From a virus, in IMG/VR virus record IMGVR_UViG_3300029523_000035, positions 1 to 16,058 of that record: DNA of 16,058 bases; one strand, written 5' to 3'. Every line of letters begins with the position of its first letter. Position 1 is the stretch's first letter. The notes below the pieces were generated by a model. The model had not been told where the DNA came from and did not search any database. It was given only the letters and a program-made list of their open reading frames with translations. The position numbers and the translations under genes are program-made. Shown piece by piece: positions 1-16,058 of this stretch.

Positions 1-65
1 AGAGGGCTTTCGTTATTCCCAATGAGACCACGTCCCCCTTTTGATTAAAAAAGCACGAAAAAATA
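1..65. repeat. Left inverted terminal repeat (65 bp)
   Basis: nt 1-65 are the reverse complement of nt 15994-16058 (64/65; single mismatch 33 vs 16026). Pairing stops at 66/15993. Terminal ITRs are the hallmark of protein-primed linear phage genomes. The end begins AGAG (a 2-nt reiteration). Confidence 0.95.
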
Positions 66-94
66 AAAACAGTCCAATGATAGGACTGTTTTTA
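57..94 (-). terminator. Rho-independent terminator ending the late operon (sequence is bidirectional)
   Basis: Stem ACAGTCC (69-75) / GGACTGT (83-89) with a 7-nt loop. On the minus strand it is followed by TTTTTATTTTTT. It lies 22 nt downstream of the stop of the last gene (117). Confidence 0.7.
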
Positions 95-116
95 TTACAC
101 GAATTAACATCAATTA

Positions 117-866: not shown

Positions 867-886
867 AATTTTTTGTCCTCCTTAAT

Positions 887-1726: not shown

Positions 1727-1743
1727 ATACTTTCACCTCCTTT

Positions 1744-2496: not shown

Positions 2497-3337
2497 TAAT
2501 CATGGTAGGAAGCTCACTGTTAAAGTCAACTGTCACATTTAGTCCCCATAGTTCATTGATAGTGTTTGCGCATCTTCTTCTTAATGTCAGTCCTACATTT
2601 CTATTAGCTTCAATCTGACCGTTGTTTCCTGCCGTTTCACCTGTAACAAGCCGTTCTCCTTTTTCTACTGGGTTACTTTCATAACCTAAAGATGTCAATA
2701 CTTGTGACCATAAATCTCTTAATTCTTGTTCGCATTTATCTACGATATAAGGAGCGCCCACATCCAGAGCTTTAATATCTTTCAAGTTTAATGAATCGGA
2801 AACTTTTAGAACAGGTAAATAATTATCGTACATTTCTCCCAGTATTTCAAAGCTCATTTTTTCGTTGTCAGAAGAAGAAAGAGCAACAGGCGTACGCTGT
2901 GCATACATATTAATATCCTTTGTTTTCCAAGTATTCGCCATTGCATCGGCATACATCAATGCCTTATAGTAATACGGCATAGTTGAGTAGTTATTCCATA
3001 AGATACAACTGTTTTCTTTACCGTATTCTTCAATATACCCATTTGCAGTATAAGCGATTCTGTCTTGAGGGATATTATAAATATCTGGTAAACCCGATAA
3101 TGAAACATTCATGAATGCATACCCTGCAATATTGTCCTTGATGAATACACCCAAACCGTGCCAAAATAAGGTTTGTTCAATGTACATCGGTAAAATTTCT
3201 TTTGGTAGATTATTCCATTTGTACCTGTTTACAAAGATATCGAAAATATCATAAAAAAAGATAGATTTTATTATTTCAAAATCACTGTTTTTCTTTTTAT
3301 TGATATTTCGTTCGAAAACTCGTAACGGATTTTTCAC
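2438..3337 (-). CDS. Portal / upper collar connector protein (phi29 gp10-like)
   Basis: 299 aa. By-eye matches to phi29 gp10, ours vs gp10: YKWNNLP vs FEWENLP, AQRTPVAL vs AQKTPVLI, GAPYIVDKC vs DAPYVVDKL, KGERLVTGET vs KKERMVTDEV, INELWGLNVTVDF vs INELYGLNVKVKF. Size is similar (309 aa in phi29). Confidence 0.9.
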   Translation of the reverse strand: MKNPLRVFERNINKKKNSDFEIIKSIFFYDIFDIFVNRYKWNNLPKEILPMYIEQTLFWHGLGVFIKDNIAGYAFMNVSLSGLPDIYNIPQDRIAYTANGYIEEYGKENSCILWNNYSTMPYYYKALMYADAMANTWKTKDINMYAQRTPVALSSSDNEKMSFEILGEMYDNYLPVLKVSDSLNLKDIKALDVGAPYIVDKCEQELRDLWSQVLTSLGYESNPVEKGERLVTGETAGNNGQIEANRNVGLTLRRRCANTINELWGLNVTVDFNSELPTMINGYIPDKYMQKGKEGDEIE

Positions 3338-3353
3338 TTATATACACCTCCTT

Positions 3354-4970
3354 TTAGTTATTTAATAACCCGTAATTCCCTATATCATCAGTATGCCACA
3401 AAGTCACGCCATTGTCAAATATATTTCTCAATTTTTTCAATTGGTCTAAATCAATATCACCAGTAAATCCGCAATGAGATGTCTTTACGTAATTCCAATA
3501 GGCTCTTGAGTGTAAATAAGGGGTAGCGATTTTATTAATTGGATACCCGAACTGTTCAAAAAAGCTGTCTGCCATTTCTGCAAATTGCCTTTTACATGAC
3601 ATCTCGTAGAAGTCAACGCCACACTCTTTGATACCTGTCAATACATTTTCTGACAAAGCTTTTCCATGTGTAACCCCAGCGTTTCTGGCTCTGTCTGTCT
3701 GATTTGCTAACATTCCAAGAGCGTCCCAAAAAGCGTTCGTTGTTTTACCTAGTCCATTAAGCCCTCCCTGTAAACTTCCTCCTGCTAACCCTGCTATCGC
3801 TGTGCCTGTCCCTATGGTAGCATCAATGGCAGTATGGACTTGTGATAGGGCTATAGAACTTTTGTTTTGAGCTAGCCATGCACGATATGTGTCAGAGGAG
3901 AACGAACACATTGGAAAAGAGGAGTTAATAAGCGCTTCATTCATTAGTCCATGCCCTAATTCTTCGCGCGTCTTATAGTTTTTAGGTGCTGTGAGAACTT
4001 GTGGCAATGTTGCGATTGTCCCGTAGCTGTCAAATTCGAGAGATTTATCCCGATTATAACTGTATTCATATCTATATATATGTGTGTTCCCTTGATTGTT
4101 GTCAGCTAGACAGAATAGCCATGGGTAGGAGTATAACTTTTTATTTTTTGGTTTATAACCCTCAAAAACATTGTCAGATATCTGCATACTTGTTATTTTA
4201 GGCTTGATTTCTTTCCCTCCTAGAGCAAGTGTACATAATTTTGGAGACATGAACAATCCTACGACGGCATCTTGTGCGCCTTGATTGTTATAATCTTCTA
4301 ACAGTGTGTTAATTCCTTTTAGTCCCTCGTCTGTGGTTACATCATAATGACCGATGCTCCCCCAACAGTACACACCATTTTCTACTCGACCCTCAAACCA
4401 ACTTTGTTCCGCTGTTCCTCTTGTGACAAAGGCGCAACACTCCGTTGGTGTCAAATCCAATTTTTTATGCCGTGAAACGATAGTTTCACCTGTCTCTAAA
4501 TTTACTGGAATTAAATTTGCGCCGATAGAGTCGGCACTTCGTGGTATATGATGATATTCGACAAAACAAGGCTTAATATTTGCATCGTAAAAGTTATTCT
4601 GAAAAACATCTAAAGAAAAATTAATTCTAGTTGTTTTTTCGGATAACCACTCGATAGAGTCGATAAAACAAAAAACCCACTCGTTAGATATCCCACTATT
4701 TTGAAAAGCTAAATAATTGAGATTAAGTGCTTTCATCTCTGTGAATGGTACACGGATATCATAGTTTCCTATTCGAATCGGTGCAAGGTGTGACAAATCA
4801 ACATTATTAATATGTTTTCGGTAAGATTCTAGGTGATTTAATAAGTCCTCTTTTGAGTTGTATAATCTGACATGCTCATATTCGTTAGACCATGGTACTC
4901 CACTATACAATCTTAATTTTGTTTCGGGGTTGCGTGGTGCAACCCCTCCTTGAACTGGTAAATTTATCAT
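3354..4970 (-). CDS. Tail knob / distal tube protein (phi29 gp9-like)
   Basis: 538 aa. The N-terminus VPWSNEYEH matches gp9 VPFSNDYKN. The C-terminus FGYPINK...NYVKTSHCGFTGDIDLDQLKKLRNIFDNGVTLWHTDDIGNY closely matches gp9 YGYKINR...[41 protein letters not shown]. It has a Gly/Ala-rich loop region as in gp9. Confidence 0.9.
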   Translation of the reverse strand: MINLPVQGGVAPRNPETKLRLYSGVPWSNEYEHVRLYNSKEDLLNHLESYRKHINNVDLSHLAPIRIGNYDIRVPFTEMKALNLNYLAFQNSGISNEWVFCFIDSIEWLSEKTTRINFSLDVFQNNFYDANIKPCFVEYHHIPRSADSIGANLIPVNLETGETIVSRHKKLDLTPTECCAFVTRGTAEQSWFEGRVENGVYCWGSIGHYDVTTDEGLKGINTLLEDYNNQGAQDAVVGLFMSPKLCTLALGGKEIKPKITSMQISDNVFEGYKPKNKKLYSYPWLFCLADNNQGNTHIYRYEYSYNRDKSLEFDSYGTIATLPQVLTAPKNYKTREELGHGLMNEALINSSFPMCSFSSDTYRAWLAQNKSSIALSQVHTAIDATIGTGTAIAGLAGGSLQGGLNGLGKTTNAFWDALGMLANQTDRARNAGVTHGKALSENVLTGIKECGVDFYEMSCKRQFAEMADSFFEQFGYPINKIATPYLHSRAYWNYVKTSHCGFTGDIDLDQLKKLRNIFDNGVTLWHTDDIGNYGLLNN

Positions 4971-5203
4971 TCAATTATGACCTCCCTATCGTGGGCAGTT
5001 ATTAATTCTTTATCATTTATTAGCTTAATGGCTACTTTAGTTTTAATAGTTTGTTTCTTATCACAAGGTTTAAATAATACAGCGTTTAAACGGTTATCTA
5101 AATAGTAATATGATGTATCTCTATCCCAATGTAAATTTGAGCCGTCGTTGTTGTATATATCAGTAAAGTACAAATCTTTAATTAAATCGTTTGGGATAAA
5201 CAA
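4967..5203 (-). CDS. Small ORF in the head-fibre (gp8.5) position; probably not independently initiated
   Basis: 78 codons starting from a TTG with no SD. The same frame stays open, with no ATG/GTG/TTG, through the whole 104-nt gap (5204-5307) and into the 3' end of the capsid gene. Its stop overlaps the tail-knob start (ATGA). See the frameshift finding. Confidence 0.4.
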   Translation of the reverse strand: MFIPNDLIKDLYFTDIYNNDGSNLHWDRDTSYYYLDNRLNAVLFKPCDKKQTIKTKVAIKLINDKELITAHDREVIIE

Positions 5204-5307
5204 ATTTGTGTTATTGGCTAAACCAAGCTTATTCTTATTATATTTATTTAATTTTAGTTTAAAAGATGTAACATAGTCATAATAATCTATAGATTTAATA
5301 CTATTAA

Positions 5308-6579
5308 TTACATCTGTTTCGTAAAATTTACAGTCTTTGTGATAGTCTCGTCTGGTCTGTAGATTGCTTTTAACACAATAGTTCCTGTCTCGTCCGCTCC
5401 CGTATGAAGTAAATGTGTCCCTGGGATAACGTAAGTCTTTGCTGAGGTTGCACCGCTGTCAACTTCAAGAGTCACCAAATTCTGATGATACGTGCCAGTT
5501 CCACCTGCCACAGTAACCTCTACTTCCTGCGTCTGCCCAGCTGTATATGTTCCAGCTGTAACACTCAGTGTCGGCTTTTCAACCACAGCGTCTGTTGTAA
5601 ATACGCGAATTGGGTAGAAAGGACTTGCACTGACCATTTCCACCTGTGTATAGAAGTAATTCCAAGATAAGACGTTTGCAAGTCTTTGGTCTGTCATCTC
5701 TTTGAACTGGTCGCGGACATTGAAGAATCGCACATCACAAAGAACTCCCTGTATAGCGCTATTTGCAAATTTGTCTACAATCACTGTCTGAACTGCTACG
5801 TCTGCCTTGTCCATATGGAATGCATACGCTAAAGCGTCAACACTAATCTGTGCGTTAACTTCCGGTGTTGTAATCCAAATCAGATTCGTTGGCATAGCGT
5901 GTGACGTTGCTCCCGCCGGGTTGTTTTCCGGTAATGGGAAGCCAAACTCTCCGACAGCTCGCTTTACCTCAATCAATAACTTTTTCGCTGATGCTTCATC
6001 TACAATCGCGTCAACAGTCACTGCCGGAAGTACCTCTTTTTCATACCCCACATTAATTAAATCACGCATAGCGAGATACTCATCCCAGTTCGCCCCTGTG
6101 ATAGCACTCTCCATTTTTGCCATAATCATATCACGGATGCCATACTCACTTGTAAAAGCTTTTCTCAAGTTGTCATATGTAACCGTGACTGGGTACTGAA
6201 TTTCAAGATTTACATTATGAAATACGCTCATGATGTAAGACTGATACTGCTGAAAAGCGAATTTAAAGTCTGCCTGTGAATCATAGACACGACCTTTGCA
6301 CATATTTACATAAGTTTCTTCGTGTGTCTCACCATAACGCATTGGCTCTTTCTTAAATCGTGCTAACGGATTTCTCCACGCGATACTGTCCACCGTCTGC
6401 ATACCGATGCGGTTAATTAATGACGGAACAATTTCGTTCCGAACAGGGGCAAAATTCAGAATGTTATCATAGACAGCCTGTAAATTGTCTGAGACTTCCA
6501 CAGGCAAGTGGTTCTGAACCTCGAAAGAAAGCTCCTGTTTGACTGCTTTTAAAATGTTTTTATTTGTTGCGTCTGCCAT
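5308..6579 (-). CDS. Major capsid protein (phi29 gp8-like, HK97 fold) with C-terminal Ig-like domain
   Basis: 423 aa; RBS AAGGAGG. SLINRIGMQTV...NPLARFKKEPMRYGETHEETY matches gp8 SLVDRIGLVVI...[21 protein letters not shown], and VDALAYAFHMDKADV matches VDVLAKAFNMNRTDF. The C-terminal ~90 aa (TLSVTAGTYTAGQTQEVEVTVAGG...) looks like a BIG2-type Ig domain, as in gp8. Confidence 0.92.
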   Translation of the reverse strand: MADATNKNILKAVKQELSFEVQNHLPVEVSDNLQAVYDNILNFAPVRNEIVPSLINRIGMQTVDSIAWRNPLARFKKEPMRYGETHEETYVNMCKGRVYDSQADFKFAFQQYQSYIMSVFHNVNLEIQYPVTVTYDNLRKAFTSEYGIRDMIMAKMESAITGANWDEYLAMRDLINVGYEKEVLPAVTVDAIVDEASAKKLLIEVKRAVGEFGFPLPENNPAGATSHAMPTNLIWITTPEVNAQISVDALAYAFHMDKADVAVQTVIVDKFANSAIQGVLCDVRFFNVRDQFKEMTDQRLANVLSWNYFYTQVEMVSASPFYPIRVFTTDAVVEKPTLSVTAGTYTAGQTQEVEVTVAGGTGTYHQNLVTLEVDSGATSAKTYVIPGTHLLHTGADETGTIVLKAIYRPDETITKTVNFTKQM

Positions 6580-6593
6580 TTGTTAAAACCTCC

Positions 6594-6878
6594 TTACTCT
6601 GTCTTACCGTCAAAGTCCAAATCTTCAACGGTAATTTTTTCTTCTGTTTCGTCTTTTGACTCGCCTTTATCATCTGCACGAGTCGTACCCTCTGCCATTT
6701 TTTCCTTAAAGCGCTTTTTATACTCGCTCTCTAGCTTTAAATACTTGTCTTTCCATTCGCTGTCTGTTTCTCCGTCTCTTTCTCCCTCATAATTCTGTAA
6801 AACTTCAATCGCGTCACCGTGTTCCTCAACGTCTGCTACAGCGTCAATTAATTCGTTTAAAGCTTCATTAAAATCCAT
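6594..6878 (-). CDS. Scaffolding protein (phi29 gp7-like, by position and composition)
   Basis: 94 aa, very acidic (Glu/Asp/Lys-rich) and predicted helical. It lies immediately upstream of the capsid gene, as gp7 does in phi29. RBS AAGGAGGA. Confidence 0.6.
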   Translation of the reverse strand: MDFNEALNELIDAVADVEEHGDAIEVLQNYEGERDGETDSEWKDKYLKLESEYKKRFKEKMAEGTTRADDKGESKDETEEKITVEDLDFDGKTE

Positions 6879-6920
6879 GTAAATATCCTCCTTTTTATTT
6901 ATTACCCTTTTACAGTTTTA

Positions 6921-6949
6921 ATTATATCACCACGGAAAGAAAAAGTAAA
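6921..6949 (-). promoter_or_regulatory. Candidate sigma-A promoter ahead of the scaffold/capsid genes
   Basis: On the minus strand: TTTACT (6949-6944), 17-nt spacer, TGaTATAAT (extended -10, TATAAT = 6926-6921). The -35 lies inside the 3' end of the upstream gene. Confidence 0.45.
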
Positions 6950-7934
6950 GAGGCATTTTTTTCTTTTTTCCATGTGGGTGTACTGGGTATGGCGATAATG
7001 TCTGTAAATACGCATACCATTTTAACGCGTTCTTTTTTCTTTCCTCTTCTTTTTCAACTCCTGCACGCTCAAAATTTTTTAAAAATACAGACGCGAGATA
7101 ATCGGGTTCTTTTGTGGACTTTCGAAACTCTTCCCATGATACTGGATATTTTATTGTTTCTATCCATTGTCCACTACTTACAGTTTCTTCATCAAGCCAA
7201 ACACATTGATAATAACCATCTGTGATATCGTACCCGTGAGCGTTCGCCCAATCTGTATAGACTGTAGCTGGTGTCCACTGTACAAGACCATAGCCACCAT
7301 TATAGTTCCCCTCTTTTAAGGACTGCCATAATTCAGGGTTGATATTAGATTCTATCTCCATATTCCCCAACATTCCTGCAATGGCGTTCAAAGTGAAATC
7401 TTTGAAAAACATGGTACTATAGAAAACATAAGCATTGTTTTTCATCTCATCTTCTGTAAGATAACGGTTTCCATGAATCCATTCAAGGGGCATTCCTGCA
7501 CTGTCGCCATAACGATATATCTTTGTCCATGCGGACGGTTTGGAAACATATGTATTAATGCTGACCTGCTCGGGTAATGGATAACGCCCACTGTGCGCTC
7601 CCATAGTGACACCGCCACCCCCAACGCCGTTCCCACTATACACCATTTCTGTATGACCACTACGCCATACAATGTCCCCTGCCTGCCAAGCCTCATTGAT
7701 ACTAATCTCTTTAAATCCTGCCTGTAATAGATATCCCTCCTCTGTTCTTGTGGTGAACCATGGATTCACTGAAAAGAACCCACCTTCTGTAAGTGCTTTT
7801 GAAATAAAAGAGCTACAGTCATAATAAGTAATACCGTTCACGGTCTGTCCTCTTCGGTATTGCTGAGAATATCCAATGTTGGGGGCATTGCACGCATTGA
7901 CCGCCCACTGATAGGCTACATTAATATTTGGCAT
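6927..7934 (-). CDS. Tail-associated peptidoglycan hydrolase (NlpC/P60- or CHAP-like peptidase plus phage tail lysozyme domain; gp13 analogue)
   Basis: 335 aa. The N-terminal half has the Cys/His peptidase signature (YYDCSSFISKAL ... GDIVWRSGHTEMVY). The C-terminal half has the phage tail lysozyme-type motif (AGMLGNMEIESNINP ... GGYGLVQWTP). Its position between the lysis and morphogenesis genes parallels phi29 gp13. Confidence 0.8.
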   Translation of the reverse strand: MPNINVAYQWAVNACNAPNIGYSQQYRRGQTVNGITYYDCSSFISKALTEGGFFSVNPWFTTRTEEGYLLQAGFKEISINEAWQAGDIVWRSGHTEMVYSGNGVGGGGVTMGAHSGRYPLPEQVSINTYVSKPSAWTKIYRYGDSAGMPLEWIHGNRYLTEDEMKNNAYVFYSTMFFKDFTLNAIAGMLGNMEIESNINPELWQSLKEGNYNGGYGLVQWTPATVYTDWANAHGYDITDGYYQCVWLDEETVSSGQWIETIKYPVSWEEFRKSTKEPDYLASVFLKNFERAGVEKEEERKKNALKWYAYLQTLSPYPVHPHGKKKKMPLYFFFPW

Positions 7935-7950
7935 TTGCTATCCTCCTTAA

Positions 7951-7968
7951 ATGTTTCACGTGAAACAT
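7951..7968. promoter_or_regulatory. parS: parS-type site (perfect 18-bp palindrome ATGTTTCACGTGAAACAT)
   Basis: The core TGTTTCACGTGAAACA (7952-7967) equals the chromosomal parS consensus TGTTNCACGTGAAACA. It lies between the endolysin stop and the RBS of the tail hydrolase gene (AAGGAGG starts 2 nt away). Confidence 0.85.
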
Positions 7969-7970
7969 TT

Positions 7971-7986
7971 TGTTCCACGTGAATAA
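7971..7986. promoter_or_regulatory. Degenerate parS-like site (14/16)
   Basis: TGTTCCACGTGAATAA matches TGTTNCACGTGAAACA at 14/16 positions. It lies 2 nt from the perfect copy. Confidence 0.5.
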
Positions 7987-7990
7987 AAAA

Positions 7991-8977
7991 TTAAAGCATA
8001 TATAACATATCTTTTGCGTAAACGAATTCAGTTCCACAAGCGCGTGCCAGTCCTCCGCCAAATGTCCCAGGGCATTCTACTCCGTTCGGGTCTTTTCCCT
8101 GTAACAAACATATGATTTCCAGTGCTGTCACAAGATACTGAGTTTCACCCCTTTTTACATAATGTTTTCCTGCTTTTGCCCTTGTTTTTTTACCTACAAT
8201 ACCGTCTTCTGCAATGGTATAGCCATAGTCCTTATTCATTGCTCTCTGCACTACACGAACCGCCATTCTTTTAGTGTTTCTTCCAACAATGCCGTCAACA
8301 GCGATTTGAACACCCGTAAAATTAATGGCGTGCTGTTGCCCTAAAGCAATCAATTCATTTCTTGGTTTTGAGTGACTAGTAGACGGAGGCGGTGTAGTAG
8401 GTGTAGCACTTGAAACTCCGTAGTCTTTGTAAACGTGGTTCACATCACATCTTCCGTTAATACCATCAACAGACCCGTTACTAGAATACTGCCAAATATC
8501 AACATTATCTACACCTAACACATTCGAGTATCTAGCTATCCACAAATCATATCCCCATGTTTCACCGATATAACTCTCAAACCATGATTTACTAGCGTAG
8601 ATTCCTGCTTTATATCCATGCGTTAGCATTGCATCACAAAAGCGCTTTGCGTTGTGCTTTGCTACTCTTTGTGTCCCTTTTTCTTCGCTGTCAAAAAAGA
8701 CAGGTAGATTAGGTGTGTGTCCTTGTAACAATCTAAGACAATGATTGATTTCACCCTCGATTCTAGCTGTGGTTTTTGCGTAGGAATAAAAATATACTCC
8801 ATATGGAATACCCAACCGTTCACATTCACTGACGTTTCGACTCCATTGTTTATCGTCTTGCGATGCCATGTCTTGCCCGTATCCGCATCGAATAATTACA
8901 TAATCGACAGCGTTTTTTAATCTCTCAAAATCAATGACACCGTTATGATATGAGATATCTACAGCTTTTTTACTCAT
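7991..8977 (-). CDS. Endolysin: GH25 muramidase with C-terminal peptidoglycan-binding repeats
   Basis: 328 aa. The N-terminus VDISYHNGVIDF...YVIIRCGYG...GIPYGVYFYSY...DLWIARYS...IWQYSS.G.VDGI.G.CDVN is the classic GH25 pattern. A Pro/Thr/Ser linker follows. Two DGIVG(R/K)(N/K)T motifs are typical of PG_binding_1 domains. Confidence 0.85.
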   Translation of the reverse strand: MSKKAVDISYHNGVIDFERLKNAVDYVIIRCGYGQDMASQDDKQWSRNVSECERLGIPYGVYFYSYAKTTARIEGEINHCLRLLQGHTPNLPVFFDSEEKGTQRVAKHNAKRFCDAMLTHGYKAGIYASKSWFESYIGETWGYDLWIARYSNVLGVDNVDIWQYSSNGSVDGINGRCDVNHVYKDYGVSSATPTTPPPSTSHSKPRNELIALGQQHAINFTGVQIAVDGIVGRNTKRMAVRVVQRAMNKDYGYTIAEDGIVGKKTRAKAGKHYVKRGETQYLVTALEIICLLQGKDPNGVECPGTFGGGLARACGTEFVYAKDMLYML

Positions 8978-9206
8978 GTTTCATGTCCTCCTTACTATCA
9001 AAAATGTCACAGATACGTTGTAGTGCTAACGTATTATTATTTAGCGCGTTCGTAATATCTGTCATTTCTTCCTTGTGTTCTTCCGTCATTTTTTCAATTT
9101 TTTGGTCGTTTTTGTCCTCCCTGTACTTTACATACCACATGGACGCACACGCAACCACGGTCGGAAGTCCTAAACTATTAATTAATGTGATAACTTCATT
9201 TATCAT
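8970..9206 (-). CDS. Holin-like protein, BhlA/UviB family
   Basis: 78 aa from ATG 9206 (RBS AAGGAGGTG, 5-nt spacer). It has a single N-terminal TM segment (LINSLGLPTVVACASMWYV) followed by a charged coiled-coil tail, as in BhlA/UviB. It overlaps the endolysin start by 8 nt. The longer ORF-track version (to 9296) reads through a promoter and the parS sites and is rejected. Confidence 0.7.
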   Translation of the reverse strand: MINEVITLINSLGLPTVVACASMWYVKYREDKNDQKIEKMTEEHKEEMTDITNALNNNTLALQRICDIFDSKEDMKHE

Positions 9207-9227
9207 GATATCACCTCCTTTTTTTCT

Positions 9228-9256
9228 ATCATAACACAAATAGATTTGTTTGTAAA
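9228..9256 (-). promoter_or_regulatory. Sigma-A type promoter for the lysis/structural operon
   Basis: On the minus strand: TTTACA (9256-9251), 17-nt spacer, TGtTATGAT (-10 = 9233-9228). The holin RBS lies about 10 nt downstream. Confidence 0.65.
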
Positions 9257-9262
9257 TAAAAA

Positions 9263-9280
9263 ATGTTTCACGTGAAACAT
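9263..9280. promoter_or_regulatory. parS: parS-type site (perfect 18-bp palindrome)
   Basis: ATGTTTCACGTGAAACAT. It lies 6 nt from the -35 of the 9228-9256 promoter. On the minus strand it is followed by a T-tract, so it could also act as an intrinsic terminator hairpin. Confidence 0.85.
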
Positions 9281-9295
9281 TGTCCACGTGAAACA
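9280..9295. promoter_or_regulatory. Degenerate parS-like site (14/16)
   Basis: TTGTCCACGTGAAACA has a perfect right half and two mismatches in the left half. It abuts the perfect copy. Confidence 0.5.
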
Positions 9296-9415
9296 TGTTG
9301 TACGTTACAAAATAATCGAATCAAAGGGGACGCAAAGCCAAAAATTGATATCGAACTACTTGTTCATGTGCGTGTATATCAATTACAATGTTCGTGTTAT
9401 TTTGGGTACAACATT

Positions 9416-9444
9416 ATGATAACACATATAATTTAAAATGTCAA
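9416..9444 (-). promoter_or_regulatory. Strong sigma-A type promoter
   Basis: On the minus strand: TTGACA (9444-9439), 17-nt spacer, TGtTATCAT (-10 = 9421-9416). The -35 shares its first base with the parS palindrome 9444-9461. Confidence 0.7.
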
Positions 9445-9461
9445 TGTTTCACGTGAAACAT
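9444..9461. promoter_or_regulatory. parS: parS-type site (perfect 18-bp palindrome)
   Basis: ATGTTTCACGTGAAACAT. It overlaps the stop codon of the packaging ATPase gene on one side and the -35 TTGACA on the other. Confidence 0.85.
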
Positions 9462-10507
9462 TAAAAAGATATGGCATCAAATATCATATTCTTACACTCC
9501 AAATTTTCAAACATAAGTAAACCTCTATTGAAATATTCACGCAACATTGCTACAATATAATGCGTTGAATTCACACGTATAGCTGTGTTGTCTATGACAT
9601 CATTTTTTGTAAAGCATATCCGCATCGGAAAACTTTCATCTGCCCCTGTTGATATATACATACATGTATCATATCTTCTTGCGTTGTACATTTTTTCGTT
9701 GAACTTAATAGTGCAAATATACCGTGATTGTCCTGTTGGTTTCCCTATTAAGCAATCATTATCATTCAAATATCTATTTTCACTTGCATACGCATTATAA
9801 CTAGCACCTTGAAACGCTCTAGCAATACCACTTTCCTTATAAGCTGTGGACGCATTTTCATTATACGTTCGCTCAAATACCCAACCATCTCCACGCAATA
9901 TTTTAGTATTATATTTTAGCATTTTATTGATACCAAAAACGCTATAATAAGGGTTCAACAATGACACGGTATTTGATGCCATATATAACATAACTCTTCT
10001 ATGCTGTTTTCCGTGACCTGCACTAATCGTTGTAAGCAACGATAAAAGTTTATTTACTTCATTAGATAAATATACGTTATCTTCATCTTGATATTCGTCA
10101 AAAAATACAGAACGAATATTGACAAATAACCCACGCATTTTTTTATACTTTCTTGCAACAGATAAAGCTAAACAATATCCACATGGCTCTTCATTTAGAA
10201 ATAGTTGTATCAATGAGCCATTCATTAAACTCTTTTCAGTCATAACATAACCGTCAAATTGTTCAGATATATCACCAAAATATGTATCAGCACAGTTTTT
10301 CATATCAACAACATTCCTGTATAAATAAATAAATTGGTTTTCGGGTCTGTATTTATCCTTTAAAAAATCAGATACTTGTCTAGACTTAATGGAATAACTT
10401 TTGCCTGCTGTTCTATTTCCATCTACAATATAAATATCGGGTGTTTCCCCATTTTTATCTTTTAAAGTTAATAATCTATCGCAATGATAATATCCATCAT
10501 TCATCAT
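9461..10507 (-). CDS. DNA encapsidation (packaging) ATPase, phi29 gp16-like
   Basis: Walker A is DGNRTAGKSY and Walker B is VFFDEYQDE. At ~348 aa it is comparable to gp16. The preferred start is ATG 10507 (GGAGGTG 6 nt upstream). ATG 10522 has no SD and in fact forms part of that SD. Confidence 0.88.
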   Translation of the reverse strand: MMNDGYYHCDRLLTLKDKNGETPDIYIVDGNRTAGKSYSIKSRQVSDFLKDKYRPENQFIYLYRNVVDMKNCADTYFGDISEQFDGYVMTEKSLMNGSLIQLFLNEEPCGYCLALSVARKYKKMRGLFVNIRSVFFDEYQDEDNVYLSNEVNKLLSLLTTISAGHGKQHRRVMLYMASNTVSLLNPYYSVFGINKMLKYNTKILRGDGWVFERTYNENASTAYKESGIARAFQGASYNAYASENRYLNDNDCLIGKPTGQSRYICTIKFNEKMYNARRYDTCMYISTGADESFPMRICFTKNDVIDNTAIRVNSTHYIVAMLREYFNRGLLMFENLECKNMIFDAISF

Positions 10508-10524
10508 TTTTAGCACCTCCATTC

Positions 10525-10542
10525 ATGTTTCACGTGAAACAT
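10525..10542. promoter_or_regulatory. parS: parS-type site (perfect; extends to the 20-bp palindrome CATGTTTCACGTGAAACATG, 10524-10543)
   Basis: Sits between the early-operon terminator and the ATPase RBS. Confidence 0.85.
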
Positions 10543-10544
10543 GA

Positions 10545-10578
10545 GTTTTATAAAAGAGGTGGCATATAGCCACCCCCC
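10545..10578 (-). terminator. Rho-independent terminator of the early transcription unit
   Basis: On the minus strand: GGGGTGGC-tatat-GCCACCTC (8-bp stem, one G-U pair) followed by TTTTATAAAA. It lies 43 nt after the stop of the 116-aa gene. Confidence 0.7.
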
Positions 10579-10620
10579 TTTAGAAGAAGAGAAATAAAAT
10601 GGTATTCTCACGGCATCATA

Positions 10621-10971
10621 TTATAAATTTGATACGTCTAAGGTACAATTGATATAATCGCGTCCTGCTTTTGTCTTTCCGCTAATTTTAATGATAGAGA
10701 ATTTTTCTCCCTCCATGACACTTTCAATGTCTTTCAAAGACTGTCTAAAGGTTGCAGACTGTCCAGAATACACTTTCTTATCCGGCGTAATAATACTTAC
10801 AATCTCCTGCACATCTCCGTTATCTTTGATATCATCAAAGATAAGATATCCGTCAATTGGGATAGATTCTCCATCATCAATATTTTTTAATGGCTCAATG
10901 TCTGGTGCTGTAGTCATAAGATACTTCTCGACCTTTGTAAACTCTCTACTCATTTCTTTAATTTCTACCAT
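10621..10971 (-). CDS. Hypothetical early protein (116 aa); candidate DNA-binding replication accessory protein by position only
   Basis: Good RBS (AGGAGGTAAAG). Second gene of a short unit with its own promoter, placed between the polymerase and the terminator. This is analogous to phi29 genes 5/6 (SSB/DBP). I recognise no motif. Confidence 0.55.
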   Translation of the reverse strand: MVEIKEMSREFTKVEKYLMTTAPDIEPLKNIDDGESIPIDGYLIFDDIKDNGDVQEIVSIITPDKKVYSGQSATFRQSLKDIESVMEGEKFSIIKISGKTKAGRDYINCTLDVSNL

Positions 10972-10995
10972 AATTCTTTACCTCCTGTTTTCCTG

Positions 10996-11295
10996 TTAAT
11001 CTTCCTTTTTCATTTCCTGCAACTCTGCTTCAGTAACAATTTTTTCACTCTTAACATCTGAGTTGAGTAAGAACTGCTCATCAGTCATAACACGTTTTTC
11101 CAATTTAAACTTAATGTCTAAAATGGAAACAATGTCCCCTTTGTACTGCTTTTCAATCAAGATTTCCGCTTTATCTCTTGTCTTGCAATTTGGTAATTTC
11201 TCGTCAAAGTAATCTTTCTTGATTACCCCTGTCTCCTTGTCTTTGTAGATTCTTTCTACAGATACCTCCGCTGTGACTAATGTCCTTGTAAACAT
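10996..11295 (-). CDS. Hypothetical early protein (99 aa)
   Basis: Start ATG 11295 is preceded by AAAGGAGGAAAACAAG. The ORF-track extension to 11382 runs through the promoter and lacks an RBS. The protein is Lys/Glu-rich. No motif recognised. Confidence 0.6.
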   Translation of the reverse strand: MFTRTLVTAEVSVERIYKDKETGVIKKDYFDEKLPNCKTRDKAEILIEKQYKGDIVSILDIKFKLEKRVMTDEQFLLNSDVKSEKIVTEAELQEMKKED

Positions 11296-11349
11296 CTTGT
11301 TTTCCTCCTTTTTTCTGTTTCTTTGAGTGTGAATTGCAATGTAATATGT

Positions 11350-11426
11350 TTTATTTATTACATTATTATAATAACACAACAACTAGATATAGTCAAGTGT
11401 TATATTATAATTTTTATTTTTTATCT
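11350..11426. repeat. Direct repeat copy A (~77 bp) carrying a promoter
   Basis: About 85% identical to 11624-11695. The first 28 nt (TTTATTTATTACATTATTATAATAACAC) are identical in both copies. Confidence 0.85.
11368..11396 (-). promoter_or_regulatory. Sigma-A type promoter (repeat copy A)
   Basis: On the minus strand: TTGACT (11396-11391), 17-nt spacer, TGtTATTAT (-10 = 11373-11368). It drives the 99-aa and 116-aa genes. Confidence 0.7.
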
Positions 11427-11601
11427 AAATCTCTTACATATATACTATCTGTATCAGCATATAAAAAACCATCACGAATAGTGATAAGTTTAGCCGTAAT
11501 CTCAGCGTTTTTTAAATTTGTATCAGTTCTTACATTACTACTATGTGACATTGAGCTTACCCCGTACAAGCTGTTTAACGGATGTTCAATTTTTTACCCA
11601 T
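11414..11601 (-). pseudogene. DNA polymerase B-derived relic / mini-ORF, frame-interrupted at an A6 run
   Basis: A strong RBS (AAAGGAGG) and ATG 11601 open only 8 codons (MGKKLNIR*). The -1 frame is open from 11593 to 11414 and reads KIEHPLNSLYGVSSMSHSSN...ITIRDGFLYADTDSIYVRDLDKK. Compare this phage's own polymerase: LNNLYGKFAMSDNSS (motif B) and FCYADTDSIHLIGLDK (motif C). One extra A in the run 11590-11595 would fuse the frames into a 62-aa ORF. Confidence 0.4.
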
Positions 11602-11623
11602 CTTTGTTCCTCCTTTTTTCTAC

Positions 11624-11695
11624 TTTATTTATTACATTATTATAATAACACGACGCTAAAATATAGTCAAGTATTATATCATAATTTTTTTATCT
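11624..11695. repeat. Direct repeat copy B (~72 bp) carrying a promoter; overlaps the polymerase stop codon
   Basis: See copy A. Confidence 0.85.
11642..11670 (-). promoter_or_regulatory. Sigma-A type promoter (repeat copy B)
   Basis: On the minus strand: TTGACT (11670-11665), 17-nt spacer, TGtTATTAT (-10 = 11647-11642). It lies immediately after the DNA polymerase stop (11674). Confidence 0.7.
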
Positions 11696-13560
11696 TTTTG
11701 AGCGTGGATTTTAAAGTCTTTATTTCTTAATACAATACCACCTTTCACACGCTCTGCTTTTAAATTACAACTATCCATACTAAGACCTGTAGATAACTCA
11801 GATATGTCCTTTTCTTCTTCAATAAATTTACGTTTAGCTTGGCTACTCATTCCACAAGCTTTAATATCAAGATAAGGCTTGCAAGGGACATGATTTTCTT
11901 CAACTATATGCTCTGCATAAGTCTTTTGGCGCTCATAATACGCAAAATCAAAAGTACTTTCACATTTCCAGCAACAAAAATTTGTCGGGTGTTCTACCAC
12001 CTTGTTTGCTTTGTCAAGTCCAATTAAATGAATCGAATCTGTATCAGCGTAGCAAAAACGGTCATAATTTGCCATAGCGTGTCGAATTGTAAAATTCATG
12101 GCATAAGATGTAATGGCACTACCTATTGGAATATATCCTACTTTCTTTTCGTGTTCCTCATGCAGAATAAATCTAATAATACCATCATCGTCAAGATAAG
12201 GCTCTTTATAAGAGGAGTTATCCGACATTGCAAATTTCCCATAAAGATTATTTAAAAAGAGTTTTGCTTTCTGTCTCTTAAAACCTTTTGAAGTTCTTTT
12301 CTCTTCACCGTATTTATCTATGTATTCATCGAAAAAACCTGTCCTTGCATAGAACCACACATAATCATATATGACCAAGTCAAAAATATCGTAAGTTTCC
12401 TTAAACAACTCCCAGTCGGTGCAAGTCATAGTGAGTGTAATATTTGTATCATGCATCTGTCCATCAATATCACGATAATATCGGTAGTATTCGCCTTTAT
12501 ACCTAACGTTGGAGCTATATAGATTTTCATTCGCCTTATATAATGTACTCTGTCTAATATGTACCCATGGAAAAGCTCCTTTTTTTAACTGAAAACGACA
12601 GTTAAATCGAATGAAAAAATATTTATTATCGGAGCTTATAAGTTCATCGGGTGGCGCTCCCCTATGGTATTCCCCGTGCCCAAATGGATATTTGTTGCCA
12701 CTAATGCTATGCATCATGGACGGGTACAGAGAGTTTACGTCAAGCACTAAACCCCAACCAACTACCGTGTGCGCATATTGAGGATTAACATAACACCATC
12801 CCCCGTGAAATGATTTATGAACATAATCCCACTGATTCCATACACCTGTTATTGATTCATCAAGATAATCTTCTCTGATATCGGGAAACAACTTATCATA
12901 TTGTTTCTTTTCATAAAAGCCTTTAAATTCTGCCAAACAGCACGAACCTATTGTCAATTTATCATGCTTTTCGTCAAACATCATTTCTAATGCTTCTTTT
13001 AACACTAACACATCATTTTCAATATATTTCTTTTCACTTTCTGTTATTTCGCAATAAGCGTACCTTTCACCCTCATAATTCATGTCTAATTTTTGGTGTT
13101 TTGTGTCAAATGATTTCCCGATATTTTTCAATGAGGATGGCATAAGCTTTAAAGAGTTTCGAATCTCCAAAAAAGTCTTATTCCATTTTAATTTAACCCA
13201 GTACCATGAGCCCATATCAGATATACAGGTTTGAAATTCTTTTGATTTCATTTCTTTATCTTTACAGTGCACCCAACGCCAACCCTCTTTTAACAGAAAA
13301 TCAATGATGAATGAACCGTCAAAAGCGAGGTTATGAAAGTACAATATATTATTGCCTTTCATTGTCAAAAACCTGTTTAAAAAATCTCTTATCGAATGAG
13401 TTATTGTTACAGTTTCAGTGTTGTCATATAAAGCCACATCAGCCCCACTCCATACTTCTGTACTGTCTTGTTTTTTACCTTTTTCTTGCTCTACTTTTTC
13501 ACCCCATACCGTTGTCTCAAAGTCACAAGCCCAAAAGGTTATTTGCTTTTTTCGTGGCAT
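11674..13560 (-). CDS. Protein-primed family B DNA polymerase (phi29 gp2-like)
   Basis: 628 aa. Motifs seen: ExoI CDFETT, ExoII YFHNLAFDGSFI, ExoIII YIENDVLVL, motif A LDVNSLYPSMM, motif B KLFLNNLYGKF, motif C YADTDSIH, and KxY QKTYAEH. The long spacing between motifs B and C is consistent with a TPR2 insertion. Confidence 0.97.
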   Translation of the reverse strand: MPRKKQITFWACDFETTVWGEKVEQEKGKKQDSTEVWSGADVALYDNTETVTITHSIRDFLNRFLTMKGNNILYFHNLAFDGSFIIDFLLKEGWRWVHCKDKEMKSKEFQTCISDMGSWYWVKLKWNKTFLEIRNSLKLMPSSLKNIGKSFDTKHQKLDMNYEGERYAYCEITESEKKYIENDVLVLKEALEMMFDEKHDKLTIGSCCLAEFKGFYEKKQYDKLFPDIREDYLDESITGVWNQWDYVHKSFHGGWCYVNPQYAHTVVGWGLVLDVNSLYPSMMHSISGNKYPFGHGEYHRGAPPDELISSDNKYFFIRFNCRFQLKKGAFPWVHIRQSTLYKANENLYSSNVRYKGEYYRYYRDIDGQMHDTNITLTMTCTDWELFKETYDIFDLVIYDYVWFYARTGFFDEYIDKYGEEKRTSKGFKRQKAKLFLNNLYGKFAMSDNSSYKEPYLDDDGIIRFILHEEHEKKVGYIPIGSAITSYAMNFTIRHAMANYDRFCYADTDSIHLIGLDKANKVVEHPTNFCCWKCESTFDFAYYERQKTYAEHIVEENHVPCKPYLDIKACGMSSQAKRKFIEEEKDISELSTGLSMDSCNLKAERVKGGIVLRNKDFKIHAQKDKKIMI

Positions 13561-13577
13561 TTATACTCACCTCTTTT

Positions 13578-14288
13578 TTATTCATTCTCAATAACAATAT
13601 CTTGTTCCTGTAGAAATTCTTGAAAATCTTCTGTAGAACTAAGAACACCCATTCTTCGCAAAATATTCCAAAACACAGCGTCAACCGTAGCTTTGTCCAT
13701 ATATGGCTCTGTTGGGAATGCTTCGGGTTCTTTTGCGTATGTATAAGCAAATAACGCTCTTTCTTTATCTGACGCATTAGCCAGTAAAGCATCTGTTTTT
13801 TCTCTAAGGTAACTCGCTGTTTTTGGTACAAAACTTTCTAAAGAATCGTACCACGAATCAATAATAGCTTCATAATCTAATACAGGTGTTGTTTCAATAA
13901 CTATTATACCCGTCCTTTGTAGCTTTTTCAATTCTTCAACCGTAGTATAACCTTGTATTCTAGCATATTCCTGCTCTTGCGGAGTTAATTTTATAAAAAC
14001 TCTGTTTCTTTCAAGAGCGTGTTTACGTCCATATTCTTTAGAAGTTATAACCTCGCCAGTAAGCATATCAACAACCGTTGCATTTTTTCGTATTTCTTTT
14101 GCAATCTGCTTTTTAATTCTATCTATTGAAACTTGCGTTGGATTTTTTACTCGCTTAATTATCTTTACTTGTACACCTTGTTTCTGTTGATTTCTAACAC
14201 GAGCTAGATATTTATTATATTCTTTAGCATATTGCTGTTGCAATATAGACGCTTTTGTTTGTTTCTTTTTAATACGCTTATTTGCCAT
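13578..14288 (-). CDS. Putative terminal protein (phi29 gp3 analogue)
   Basis: 236 aa, immediately upstream of the polymerase as in phi29. It has a very basic N-terminal third (MANKRIKKKQTK...RVRNQQKQ) and an acidic C-terminal region. ITRs imply a terminal protein. Assigned by synteny and composition only. Confidence 0.6.
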   Translation of the reverse strand: MANKRIKKKQTKASILQQQYAKEYNKYLARVRNQQKQGVQVKIIKRVKNPTQVSIDRIKKQIAKEIRKNATVVDMLTGEVITSKEYGRKHALERNRVFIKLTPQEQEYARIQGYTTVEELKKLQRTGIIVIETTPVLDYEAIIDSWYDSLESFVPKTASYLREKTDALLANASDKERALFAYTYAKEPEAFPTEPYMDKATVDAVFWNILRRMGVLSSTEDFQEFLQEQDIVIENE

Positions 14289-14291
14289 ATT

Positions 14292-14486
14292 TTAGTTACC
14301 CTCCTTTTGCACCTTTCTTAATAATAATCCGTGAGGTACACGGGTATATTCAATGCTGTCTCCCGGGTGGATGTCTAAATCTCGGATTGCTTCTTTTGGT
14401 ATCATGACACGGGCGGTGTAACCGCCTGTGCCTCCTTTCGTAAACATAACTTTGTAACGCAATAATTGATTTGTTAATTTTGCCAT
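14292..14486 (-). CDS. AbrB/SpoVT-family DNA-binding protein (putative transcriptional regulator)
   Basis: 64 aa. ARVMIPKEAIRDLDIHPGDSIEY...LLLRKV fits the swapped-hairpin SpoVT-AbrB signature (vtIPkeiRd.LgikeGD.ve). It occupies the slot of phi29 gene 4 (regulator p4), just upstream of the terminal protein gene. Confidence 0.7.
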   Translation of the reverse strand: MAKLTNQLLRYKVMFTKGGTGGYTARVMIPKEAIRDLDIHPGDSIEYTRVPHGLLLRKVQKEGN

Positions 14487-14496
14487 ATTTTCCTCC

Positions 14497-14961
14497 TTAT
14501 AATATGTTAAATACTTTCCATGTAAATTCTGAAAAGTGTTCTGCTATGAATGATACAGAAGATAAGAAAAGATATAGTAAAAATGTTGCCATAATTATAA
14601 CCGATAAGATTCCCAAAAAAGATGATATTTTTTCTAATTTGGTAAATGGCTCTTTTTCTTCTGTAGTTGTATGCCTTGCTATCCATTCTGTAGGATTTTC
14701 ATGCAATGTTTCACGTGAAACATTATCTGAATCGATTTTATGATTTTGAAATGTCTCTATATAGTCTTTATTTCCCTTAGTATCAATGGTATAGGCTTCT
14801 CCATCAAAACCCACATAAATGTTTTTATTAGTATACAAATTTTCTACCCAGTAGGGTTCGTCTACAAATAAGGCTATGTAGTTGTTTAGTGAGTTTTCAG
14901 TGTGAAAGTCGTGTATTTCTACACCAAAATCTGTGATATTATGTAATCTGTATTTAATCAT
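14497..14961 (-). CDS. Early membrane-anchored protein of unknown function
   Basis: 154 aa; RBS AAGGAGAGG. It has a C-terminal hydrophobic segment (ISSFLGILSVIIMATFLLYLFLSSVSF). It contains an in-frame parS palindrome (coding NVSRET). Confidence 0.6.
   Translation of the reverse strand: MIKYRLHNITDFGVEIHDFHTENSLNNYIALFVDEPYWVENLYTNKNIYVGFDGEAYTIDTKGNKDYIETFQNHKIDSDNVSRETLHENPTEWIARHTTTEEKEPFTKLEKISSFLGILSVIIMATFLLYLFLSSVSFIAEHFSEFTWKVFNIL
14706..14723. promoter_or_regulatory. parS: parS-type site (perfect 18-bp palindrome), intragenic
   Basis: ATGTTTCACGTGAAACAT inside the 154-aa early gene. Confidence 0.8.
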
Positions 14962-15379
14962 TTTTACCTCTCCTTAAAAATCTTGAATAATATCTTGTTC
15001 CCCATATATCGTCTATAGAATTTAAAATATCCTCATATTTACTATAGTCTACGTCATTAATTTGTTGACATAATGTTGCCACTCTGCCCCATTGAATATG
15101 AAAACTATCTCTAGCATTATCATATAAACCCCCTAACACATCTTTAAAAAATTCAATTAATTCTACACTAATACTTGTACTAAATATATATAATTCATCT
15201 TTAATATAAAAACAATAACAAGTATTATCTATTGAAACCGTAACAATAGAATCTTTAGTGCTATACCTCTGCACTATTGTTAATAAGGATTCGTCTGTGT
15301 ATAACGCCTCACTTCTAACTATGTGCCCTGTATTAGAATTAATTACAACGACTTTAACTCTATTAATTTCTTCGTTCAT
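14954..15379 (-). CDS. Hypothetical early protein (141 aa)
   Basis: RBS AAAGGAGGTAT. Its stop overlaps the next start (ATGA-type coupling). No motif recognised. Confidence 0.6.
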   Translation of the reverse strand: MNEEINRVKVVVINSNTGHIVRSEALYTDESLLTIVQRYSTKDSIVTVSIDNTCYCFYIKDELYIFSTSISVELIEFFKDVLGGLYDNARDSFHIQWGRVATLCQQINDVDYSKYEDILNSIDDIWGTRYYSRFLRRGKND

Positions 15380-15395
15380 TTTTTATACCTCCTTT

Positions 15396-15695
15396 TTAAC
15401 ATAAATCATCTATACTATTATTAACAAACTCTAATTTCTCACATACAAATTTCTTACAATATAATCTACCATCACTTGTTACAATAAAAATATCACTAAT
15501 ATGTGTAGACGCATCTTCGATAAAATATACAATCACGTCAAATAATTTATCGTCTAATGATAATGTTGTGTGCAATGTCTCATTTGCTTTATCTTTTAAA
15601 TAATCAATAAAGCCATCAACAGTGCTAGACTTCATAATATCACAAAGTTCCTCACCAAAGCTATCCCATATTTTTTCGTCATATTTAATCTTCAT
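15396..15695 (-). CDS. Hypothetical early protein (99 aa, acidic)
   Basis: RBS AAAGGAGGAAT; tightly packed in the early operon. No motif recognised. Confidence 0.6.
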   Translation of the reverse strand: MKIKYDEKIWDSFGEELCDIMKSSTVDGFIDYLKDKANETLHTTLSLDDKLFDVIVYFIEDASTHISDIFIVTSDGRLYCKKFVCEKLEFVNNSIDDLC

Positions 15696-15697
15696 TT

Positions 15698-15916
15698 TTA
15701 TTCCTCCTTTTCATAGTATCTTTTTTCCCAACAAGCATATAATTCACGTAGTCTGTTTTCTTCATTATCTCGCTCTACATCTGTAAAGTCTGATAACTCT
15801 AAATAGGCTGATATCCTGCCCATTTGCATTATGAAAGCTACTAAAGCTTTATCATACTTCCCTAACTCAATGTCTTGTTTAAATGTGTCATAAAATAATT
15901 GATACTTTTCATTCAT
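15698..15916 (-). CDS. Hypothetical early protein (72 aa)
   Basis: First gene after the right-end promoter; RBS AAGGAGGGA. No motif recognised. Confidence 0.6.
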   Translation of the reverse strand: MNEKYQLFYDTFKQDIELGKYDKALVAFIMQMGRISAYLELSDFTDVERDNEENRLRELYACWEKRYYEKEE

Positions 15917-15963
15917 TATTTTTTCCCTCCTTATATTTACTAGGTTTCCTTGTTTCTATAATT

Positions 15964-15992
15964 ATAATACCACACGCCTGTTCGTTTGTCAA
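15964..15992 (-). promoter_or_regulatory. Right-end early sigma-A promoter
   Basis: On the minus strand: TTGACA (15992-15987), 17-nt spacer, TATTAT (15969-15964). The -35 lies 1 nt inside the ITR boundary, and the A-rich inner ITR could serve as an UP element. Confidence 0.7.
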
Positions 15993-15993
15993 G

Positions 15994-16058
15994 TATTTTT
16001 TCGTGCTTTTTTAATCAAAAGGGGGTCGTGGTCTCATTGGGAATAACGAAAGCCCTCT
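15994..16058. repeat. Right inverted terminal repeat (65 bp)
   Basis: Reverse complement of nt 1-65 with one mismatch (16026). Confidence 0.95.

Follow-up and report, generated by a model that had tools for sequence, protein, structure and literature searches.

Here, we describe chromosomal-type parS sites, copies of a host-type centromere word, in the viral DNA of IMG/VR record IMGVR_UViG_3300029523_000035 (positions 1 to 16,058; this whole stretch of 16,058 nucleotides is called the window), which is the complete genome of a small phi29-like protein-primed podophage. We favour, with moderate confidence, the reading that these sites are accessory stations for the recruitment of host ParB, accommodated in the few free intergenic slots of the genome and in part put to a second use as an RNA hairpin. 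A preliminary description of this DNA had proposed that parS copies, set against promoters around a central non-coding region, form a ParB-gated switch for the late genes. New here is, first, the occurrence of a parS set of phi29 type in human-gut podophages that form a large and abundant group and probably infect Clostridia. Also new are a gene for a putative RNA resembling phi29 prohead RNA (pRNA) beside the packaging ATPase gene and outside Bacillus phages, which would extend the reach of RNA-dependent packaging motors, and a parS pair that appears to double as terminator of this pRNA-like RNA. To our knowledge, phi29 is the sole virulent phage for which experiments have documented the hijacking of parS.

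Conserved parS sites in a complete phi29-like genome

The window has 65-bp inverted terminal repeats at 1-65 and 15994-16058, which are 98% complementary with one mismatch (position 33), and is therefore a complete protein-primed linear genome. A type-B DNA polymerase, a gp16-type ATPase and the inverted terminal repeats, in combination with the absence of an integrase, mark it as a protein-primed virulent phage. The minus strand carries all of its genes. The parS consensus of Firmicutes, TGTTTCACGTGAAACA, is present without mismatch at 7952-7967, 9264-9279, 9445-9460, 10526-10541 and 14707-14722, and partner copies with three mismatches stand at 7971-7986 and 9280-9295. At up to three mismatches the window contains 8 matches where 0.17 are expected, a number reached in 0 of 200 shuffles. 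These statistics, the five perfect sites and their conservation in about 80 relatives confirm that the parS copies of the preliminary description are real, and they add a fifth perfect site inside an early open reading frame (ORF) at 14707; the other four are intergenic. With five 16/16 matches the sites fit the definition of chromosomal-type parS, a 16-bp palindrome TGTTNCACGTGAAACA, and the same 16-bp word is the chromosomal parS of gut Firmicutes, Lachnospiraceae included, which carry ParABS (PMC10197239, PMC7022226). Protein annotation and domain searches found no ParB-like protein encoded by the window.

The comparative evidence comes mainly from IMG/VR, where about 80 close relatives have ATPases 85-99% identical to that of the window (clade A) and two clades are further off, at ~58% (clade B) and ~60% (clade C) ATPase identity. 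A parS with at most one mismatch is found at the ATPase stop codon in 68 of 70 clade A relatives, at the RNA terminator in 68 of 69, at the endolysin/hydrolase junction in 68 of 69 and upstream of the ATPase in 59 of 67; an early-region parS is found in most relatives of clades A and B. Identity within the 16-mers amounts to 97.0-99.8%, as opposed to 77.5-89.7% in the flanks (32-80 relatives per site). The values are 99.2% vs 89.5% at 9445, where the 16-mer is unchanged in 72 of 80 relatives, 97.0% vs 81.0% at 10526, and 98.4% vs 77.5% in the coding flanks at 14707. The site at 7952 reaches 99.8% and its degenerate partner at 7971-7986 (TTATTCACGTGGAACA) 97.9% (67 relatives), and the perfect copy 9264-9279 is identical in 75 of 79 relatives. 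As the 16-mers are far more conserved than their flanks, even inside an ORF, selection acts on the parS DNA word itself.

The positions given in the preliminary description largely held (Table 1). The parS at 9444-9461 had been described as touching a strong promoter at its -35 box as well as the stop codon of the ATPase gene; its 16-mer (9445-9460) abuts both, with a spacing to the -35 box of 0 nt in 69 of 69 clade A relatives. The pair at 9263-9296 does end 6 nt short of the late promoter, counted to its -35 box (T6-A, then TTTACA). The perfect copy at 7952 lies 3-4 nt from the ribosome-binding site (RBS) of the tail hydrolase gene, and that at 10525 stands, as stated, between a terminator-like element and the ATPase RBS. 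Only 1,263 of the 16,058 bases (7.9%, counted from gene coordinates) are intergenic, so that any 16-bp palindrome outside genes must touch an RBS, a promoter or a terminator, and the intergenic gaps that hold the parS sites contain little else. Genes, for their part, hardly leave room for such a palindrome, and proximity of parS to these elements is to be expected. Folded as RNA, the 7952-7986 pair gives a hairpin of 13 bp (-16.7 kcal/mol), which lacks a U-run and whose end lies 4 nt ahead of the tail-hydrolase RBS; the degenerate member of the pair could be a weak ParB site, or an element of mRNA stability or processing.

A putative pRNA-like RNA gene between parS sites

The region bracketed by parS had been taken for non-coding. 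Fold, covariation and loop complementarity argue instead that it encodes an RNA with a three-way junction, similar in topology to phi29 prohead RNA. Its predicted elements are, in order, an A helix formed by the 5' and 3' ends, a C helix, a CE bulge, an E hairpin, a U-rich junction and a D hairpin; the A helix carries a migrating bulged A and the E hairpin is short. The minus strand from the upstream promoter (P1) to the tandem parS pair folds with z = -3.97 relative to shuffled sequence, and the RNA region is 84-96% identical across relatives. RNAalifold predicts 41 pairs from 78 unique sequences, seven of them with compensatory changes. In 26 diverse clade A sequences, a hand-specified structure of 34 nested pairs has 98.3% of its cells paired, compared with 34-40% in slid controls, and shows compensatory double changes at eight pairs. 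Folding recovered the three-way-junction topology in 6 of 8 lineages.

The CE bulge (ACACGCACA) is one-sided and comprises 9 nt on the 5' strand. It is Watson-Crick complementary to the loop of the D hairpin (CUUUGCGUC), and eight lineages have eight different pairs of 4-7 bp: ACGCA/UGCGU (CE bulge/D loop) in the window, CGUUA/UAACG in L080, GAAUCAA/UUGAUUC in L245, GUACA/UGUAC in L249, CCCA/UGGG in L247, UCCA/UGGA in L250, GGAUA/UAUCC in L251 and GUAGUCU/AGACUAC in Clostridium phage HM2. The summed pairing of the cognate loops is 42, which is reached by 1 of 40,320 permutations, namely the cognate assignment. We regard the two loops as candidate interlocking loops, for which inter- and intramolecular pairing are indistinguishable by sequence. 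The pRNA-like lineages would thus supply new natural variants of such loops.

Published hallmarks of pRNA are a three-way junction, CE and D loops that interlock, and very low similarity in sequence (PMC5066667). A 2024 review places pRNA only in phi29 and its relatives among the Bacillus phages (PMC11476376). The window RNA shares with phi29 pRNA an identical element order (A, C, CE bulge, E, U-rich junction, D, A), and its ~110-116 nt compare with 117-120 nt of domain I. Its CE/D pairing words vary by lineage, as they do among phi29, SF5, M2 and GA1 (PMC5066667). Like pRNA it has its own strong promoter and a 3' hairpin domain, and the genome that carries it encodes a gp16-type ATPase and a gp10-type connector. 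It differs in that its gene lies mid-genome, directly downstream of the ATPase gene, and not at the genome end, in that its D stem has only 2-5 bp, and in that its 3' domain is built of parS copies. The Rfam pRNA model RF00044 has no match in the window at E <= 10 and none in L080, L247 or HM2 at E <= 1. The same model scores phi29's own pRNA, used as positive control, at 145 bits. Homology to pRNA is therefore unproven, and we name the RNA pRNA-like. We infer a role in DNA packaging from the context of the gene, which adjoins the packaging ATPase gene in a genome that also has connector and collar genes.

A covariance model built from the clade A RNAs (R1) recovers the RNAs of clade B (E ~1e-6) and a relocated RNA in L249, and gives no match in clade C, Clostridium symbiosum phage CS229P2, the MT835xxx phages or phi29. 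RNAs beyond the reach of R1 were analysed by hand; for MT835854 and CS229P2 the RNA could not be defined confidently. In L249 the pRNA-like gene (5444-5560) is not directly after the ATPase gene but ~650 nt further downstream. A permissive Rfam scan of the window returned only chance matches of miRNA and snoRNA type on the palindromes. A scan of IMG/VR with a degenerate pattern of the core at DNA level (CAAGYAGT...CCCTTTGR) hit mostly unrelated contigs and was not used.

Predicted promoters and terminator around the RNA

The promoters that the preliminary description had noted beside parS are supported by hexamers that are conserved in relatives while the spacers vary. For P1, the promoter at 9444, this holds across 78 unique relatives, and clades B and C as well as HM2 have a counterpart of P1 upstream of the RNA. 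P1 is of sigma-A type and is predicted by its position to drive the gene of the pRNA-like RNA rather than those of late proteins. The late promoter P2 is conserved in clade A relatives, where parS lies 6-9 nt from its -35 box. It is a near-consensus sigma-A promoter that looks constitutive, with no obvious activator site.

The tandem pair at 9263-9296 is predicted to serve as intrinsic terminator of the RNA. On the transcribed strand it folds into a 14-bp hairpin (9296..9263; -18.3 kcal/mol, z = -5.6), which is directly followed by the U-run UUUUUUAUUU and whose stem consists of the degenerate parS (9280-9295) paired with the perfect parS (9264-9279). Calling it a pair was correct insofar as both copies are present, but the second member is degenerate: only its left ~12 nt, from 9280, are conserved, exactly those that pair with the right part of the perfect copy. 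The interval of 6 nt between parS and P2 is the T-tract of this terminator, which measures 6-9 nt among relatives. Single parS copies give weak RNA hairpins (-8.9 kcal/mol) without U-runs. In HM2 a partial-plus-full parS-like hairpin with a T-run would likewise terminate the RNA, and in MT835854 a perfect parS forms the tip of a terminator hairpin.

parS in sister clades and distant phi29-like phages

Clade C keeps the order of hairpin, T-run and TTTACA, but the hairpin is unrelated and no parS is present there; L248, a complete clade C genome of 16,166 bp, contains zero parS at up to two mismatches. In clade B the terminator is GC-rich and its loop holds the -35 box of P2, and 2-4 parS copies with a 26-bp period are found further downstream, in the 5' leader of the holin gene (+45 to +113 of the P2 transcript). 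The 26-bp tandem repeat unit CTTGATTCATGTTTCACGTGAAACAT occurs at 5695-5762 in L080 and at +258 to +351 after the ATPase gene in L242, and the number of parS copies in clade B differs between near-identical genomes. As clades B and C keep the layout with parS moved or absent, the ancestral layout would have been P1, RNA, terminator and P2, with parS as an accessory that was gained, moved and lost. Such gain, movement and loss of a perfect and conserved word between sister clades suggest that, in the gut, a connection between phages and the partition or dormancy of their hosts is widespread.

A position behind the ATPase stop codon recurs in phages with only 25-60% ATPase identity to the window. 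The phi29 genome has TGTTTCACGTGGAACA, one mismatch from the consensus, at 10445, 15903, 17243 and 18760, while the literature counts five sites; its copy at 17243-17258 lies one base past the end of gene 16 (ATPase) at 17242, just before a bidirectional terminator. CS229P2 has a perfect parS (10426-10441) directly after the ATPase stop codon, and in L249 a parS follows 7 nt after this codon, with the RBS of the next gene immediately behind it. Shared ancestry or a shared free slot may account for this position.

Proposed recruitment of host ParB and alternative readings

Recruitment of host ParB is the best supported reading of the parS sites because the phage encodes no ParB, the word is identical to the host-type centromere and Clostridia are the likely hosts. 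Host ParB (Spo0J) would load onto the phage DNA at the parS sites and couple it to the host partition machinery. The phage genome would thereby be retained, or be segregated into a forespore or daughter cell as in phi29, and the site at 9264 would additionally be reused at the RNA level as terminator of the pRNA-like RNA. ParB binding, a function in segregation or entrapment, and the transcription start sites are what we infer here. The host is probably a gut Clostridia bacterium, perhaps of the Lachnospiraceae: the window endolysin is most similar to endolysins of Lachnospiraceae phages, and one relative is binned in a Clostridia metagenome-assembled genome, the sole yield of a host search in isolate genomes. 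The closest deposited relatives by protein, with 36-40% ATPase identity, are human-faecal metagenomic phages, Clostridium symbiosum phages CS229P1-3 and HM2. A whole-window megablast against GenBank phages gave zero matches, and these relatives were reached through protein search alone.

The closest known parallel is phi29, which has five parS sites and in which Spo0J is implicated in segregating the genome into the prespore (Meijer et al. 2005, as summarised in PMC2731898). Each of the two is a virulent protein-primed podophage with about five chromosomal-type parS and no ParB of its own, and each has a parS directly after the stop codon of the packaging ATPase gene (17243 in phi29, 9445 in the window). 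The window sites, however, are perfect 16/16 matches whereas those of phi29 have one mismatch, and four of five are intergenic, abutting promoters, RBS and terminator, whereas those of phi29 are mostly inside genes. Further differences are that all window genes are on one strand, that the host is here deduced and probably belongs to the Lachnospiraceae, and that the window promoters have no Spo0A boxes nearby. The preliminary description had likened its switch to phi29; it was right that Spo0A does the silencing there, through boxes at the promoters of the lytic genes, but the parS sites of phi29 serve Spo0J-dependent prespore segregation (PMC2731898).

Several observations weigh against recruitment and its RNA component as drawn here. 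Spo0A boxes (TGNCGAA), the second arm of entrapment in phi29, are not enriched in the window (6 found, 6.5 expected), with none near P1, P2 or the early promoter. Entrapment also calls for a spore-forming host, and the assignment to Clostridia/Lachnospiraceae is a prediction from sequence. The zero-nucleotide junction between parS and the -35 box is invariant in clade A, and in clade A as in clade B the parS cluster never lies more than ~100 bp from P2; both would fit a regulatory role as well. The window RNA, moreover, is not recognised by RF00044.

Such a role is the core of the first alternative, ParB gating of the late genes, which we consider unlikely. ParB on parS would occlude or block RNA polymerase at P1, at P2 and at the leaders of the ATPase and hydrolase genes, and genes for packaging, lysis and morphogenesis would be off until ParB is removed or titrated by replicating phage genomes. 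The geometry permits this: parS touches the P1 -35 box in all 69 relatives and lies 6-9 nt from that of P2, and the clade B copies sit early in the P2 transcript. A timing device would otherwise be missing, as P2 is near-consensus without an obvious activator site and no Spo0A boxes are near the promoters. Precedents are KorB, a repressor, and the ParB of P. aeruginosa, which represses promoters beside parS3 and parS4 (PMC7022226, PMC5521831). The likeness to these systems, including IncP-1 KorB, is that a ParB site stands beside a core promoter, a resemblance of position only. Throughout clade A parS is adjacent to P1; clades B and C retain the promoters without parS next to them, and the complete genome L248 keeps the same promoters without any parS, so comparative data show promoters that do not need the sites. 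The layout of P1, RNA and terminator requires no switch as explanation either, because the strong promoter would be the RNA's own, driving no late proteins, and the tandem pair its terminator, whose T-tract of varying length sets the spacing to P2. Moreover, the parS of phi29 are mostly away from its promoters, loss of Spo0J in B. subtilis leaves expression beside parS unaltered (PMC7022226), and the phage has another candidate regulator in an early protein of AbrB type.

It is intriguing to propose that parS is dual-coded, as DNA loading ParB in the manner of a copy-number timer or dormancy switch and as RNA forming the 3' domain and terminator of a hitherto unrecognised pRNA family in phages of gut Clostridia; this combination, next in order, is also unlikely. 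If it were true, ParB would damp expression of the pRNA, the ATPase and the late genes at low phage copy number, acting at P1, at the junction of terminator and P2 and at two leaders, until replication titrates ParB away, or sporulation would lock ParB on. Because the same parS sequence forms the terminator stem, the DNA and RNA roles should be separable by compensatory mutations.

More doubtful is a decoy function, in which multicopy phage parS titrates host ParB or loads SMC, disturbing segregation or blocking sporulation via Soj/ParA, so that the host cannot escape into dormancy. The five to seven high-affinity sites per genome under strong selection, the clade B tandem arrays of up to four copies and the block of sporulation through Soj upon loss of spo0J (PMC7022226) are in accordance with this idea. 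However, the phi29 data indicate entrapment and not inhibition of sporulation (PMC2731898), and many relatives manage without any parS.

That the palindromes matter solely as transcript hairpins, for termination, processing or stability and with ParB uninvolved, is quite improbable. Tandem pairs do fold into 13-14-bp hairpins, one of them with a U-run, and other clades place unrelated GC-rich hairpins at the same spot. Yet an RNA stem needs neither a 16/16 parS match at five loci nor near-absolute conservation of loop and stem, the single copies would be weak hairpins, one parS is inside an ORF, and the same 16-mer recurs in phi29, CS229P2 and HM2. Very improbable, finally, is that a phage regulator such as the 64-aa AbrB/MazE-fold early protein (ORF 14292..14486 with a PF04014 domain, E = 3e-7) binds the palindromes, which do adjoin promoters, in place of host ParB, since we know of no AbrB-type protein that recognises the parS palindrome and phi29, without such a protein, carries the host-centromere word too, which points to ParB.

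Other features of the genome

Annotation searches agree with the preliminary assignments of ATPase, holin, endolysin and tail hydrolase (Table 1). Other structural genes identified in the window are those of the major head protein, tail knob, upper collar and lower collar. No tRNA or tmRNA genes were found in the window. The ATPase gene most likely starts at 10507, behind the RBS GGAGGTG (10520..10514), rather than at 10522. From the terminator-like hairpin (10580..10553) to the start of the ATPase gene (10508-10620) no promoter is recognisable, so that the ATPase seems to rely on read-through out of the early or middle operon that lies upstream.

Table 1 Coordinates of parS sites, RNA elements and genes in the window
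Feature	Coordinates	Strand	Remarks
Perfect parS	9445..9460		Between ATPase stop codon (9463..9461) and P1 -35 box (9444..9439), abutting each
parS pair	9263-9296		Perfect copy 9264-9279, degenerate copy 9280-9295; then T6-A and P2 -35 TTTACA (9256..9251)
Perfect parS	10526..10541		Between GC-rich terminator-like hairpin with T-run (10580..10553) and ATPase RBS (10520..10514)
Perfect parS with degenerate partner	7952-7967, 7971-7986		Between endolysin stop codon and tail-hydrolase RBS
Perfect parS	14707..14722		Inside early ORF 14497..14961
Predicted promoter P1	9416..9444	-	TTGACA-17-TGtTATCAT, 11/12 match; extended -10 at 9421..9416
Putative pRNA-like RNA core	9300..9409	-	~110 nt; presumed start of transcription
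Predicted intrinsic terminator of pRNA-like RNA	9253..9296	-	Hairpin, then UUUUUUAUUU
Predicted late promoter P2	9228..9256	-	TTTACA-17-TGtTATGAT; -10 at 9233..9228; upstream of holin, endolysin and structural genes
Type-B DNA polymerase	13560..11674	-	Preceded by early genes
phi29 gp16-type DNA packaging ATPase	9461..10507	-	phrog_2150, E = 5e-53
Holin	8970..9206	-	phrog_4898; RBS AGGAGG 9219..9214, ATG at 9206
GH25-type endolysin	8977..7991	-	
Tail-associated hydrolase	7934..6927	-	

An early promoter (TTGACA-17-TATTAT, 15992..15964) begins at the inner edge of the right terminal repeat. The early ORF 14292..14486 (minus strand) encodes a 64-aa protein with a swapped-hairpin DNA-binding domain of SpoVT/AbrB/MazE type (PF04014) and is a candidate phage transcription regulator. 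Another ORF, 10621-10971 (minus strand), has a weak match to the phi29 family of single-stranded DNA-binding proteins (SSB; PF17427, E = 1.3e-3, under the curated cut-off), and within this SSB-like ORF is an opposite-strand promoter-like site (10629-10658; 11/12 match plus TG). In a 291-nt gap past the DNA polymerase gene (within 11340-11700, minus strand), a promoter region is directly repeated over ~65 nt, with copies of TTGACT-17-TATTAT at 11670..11642 and 11396..11368. Between these promoter copies are an 8-codon mini-ORF with a strong RBS and an ORF fragment ending in GFLYADTDSIYVRDLDKK; this fragment has the YxDTDS motif of type-B polymerases and resembles a remnant or duplication of the polymerase gene.

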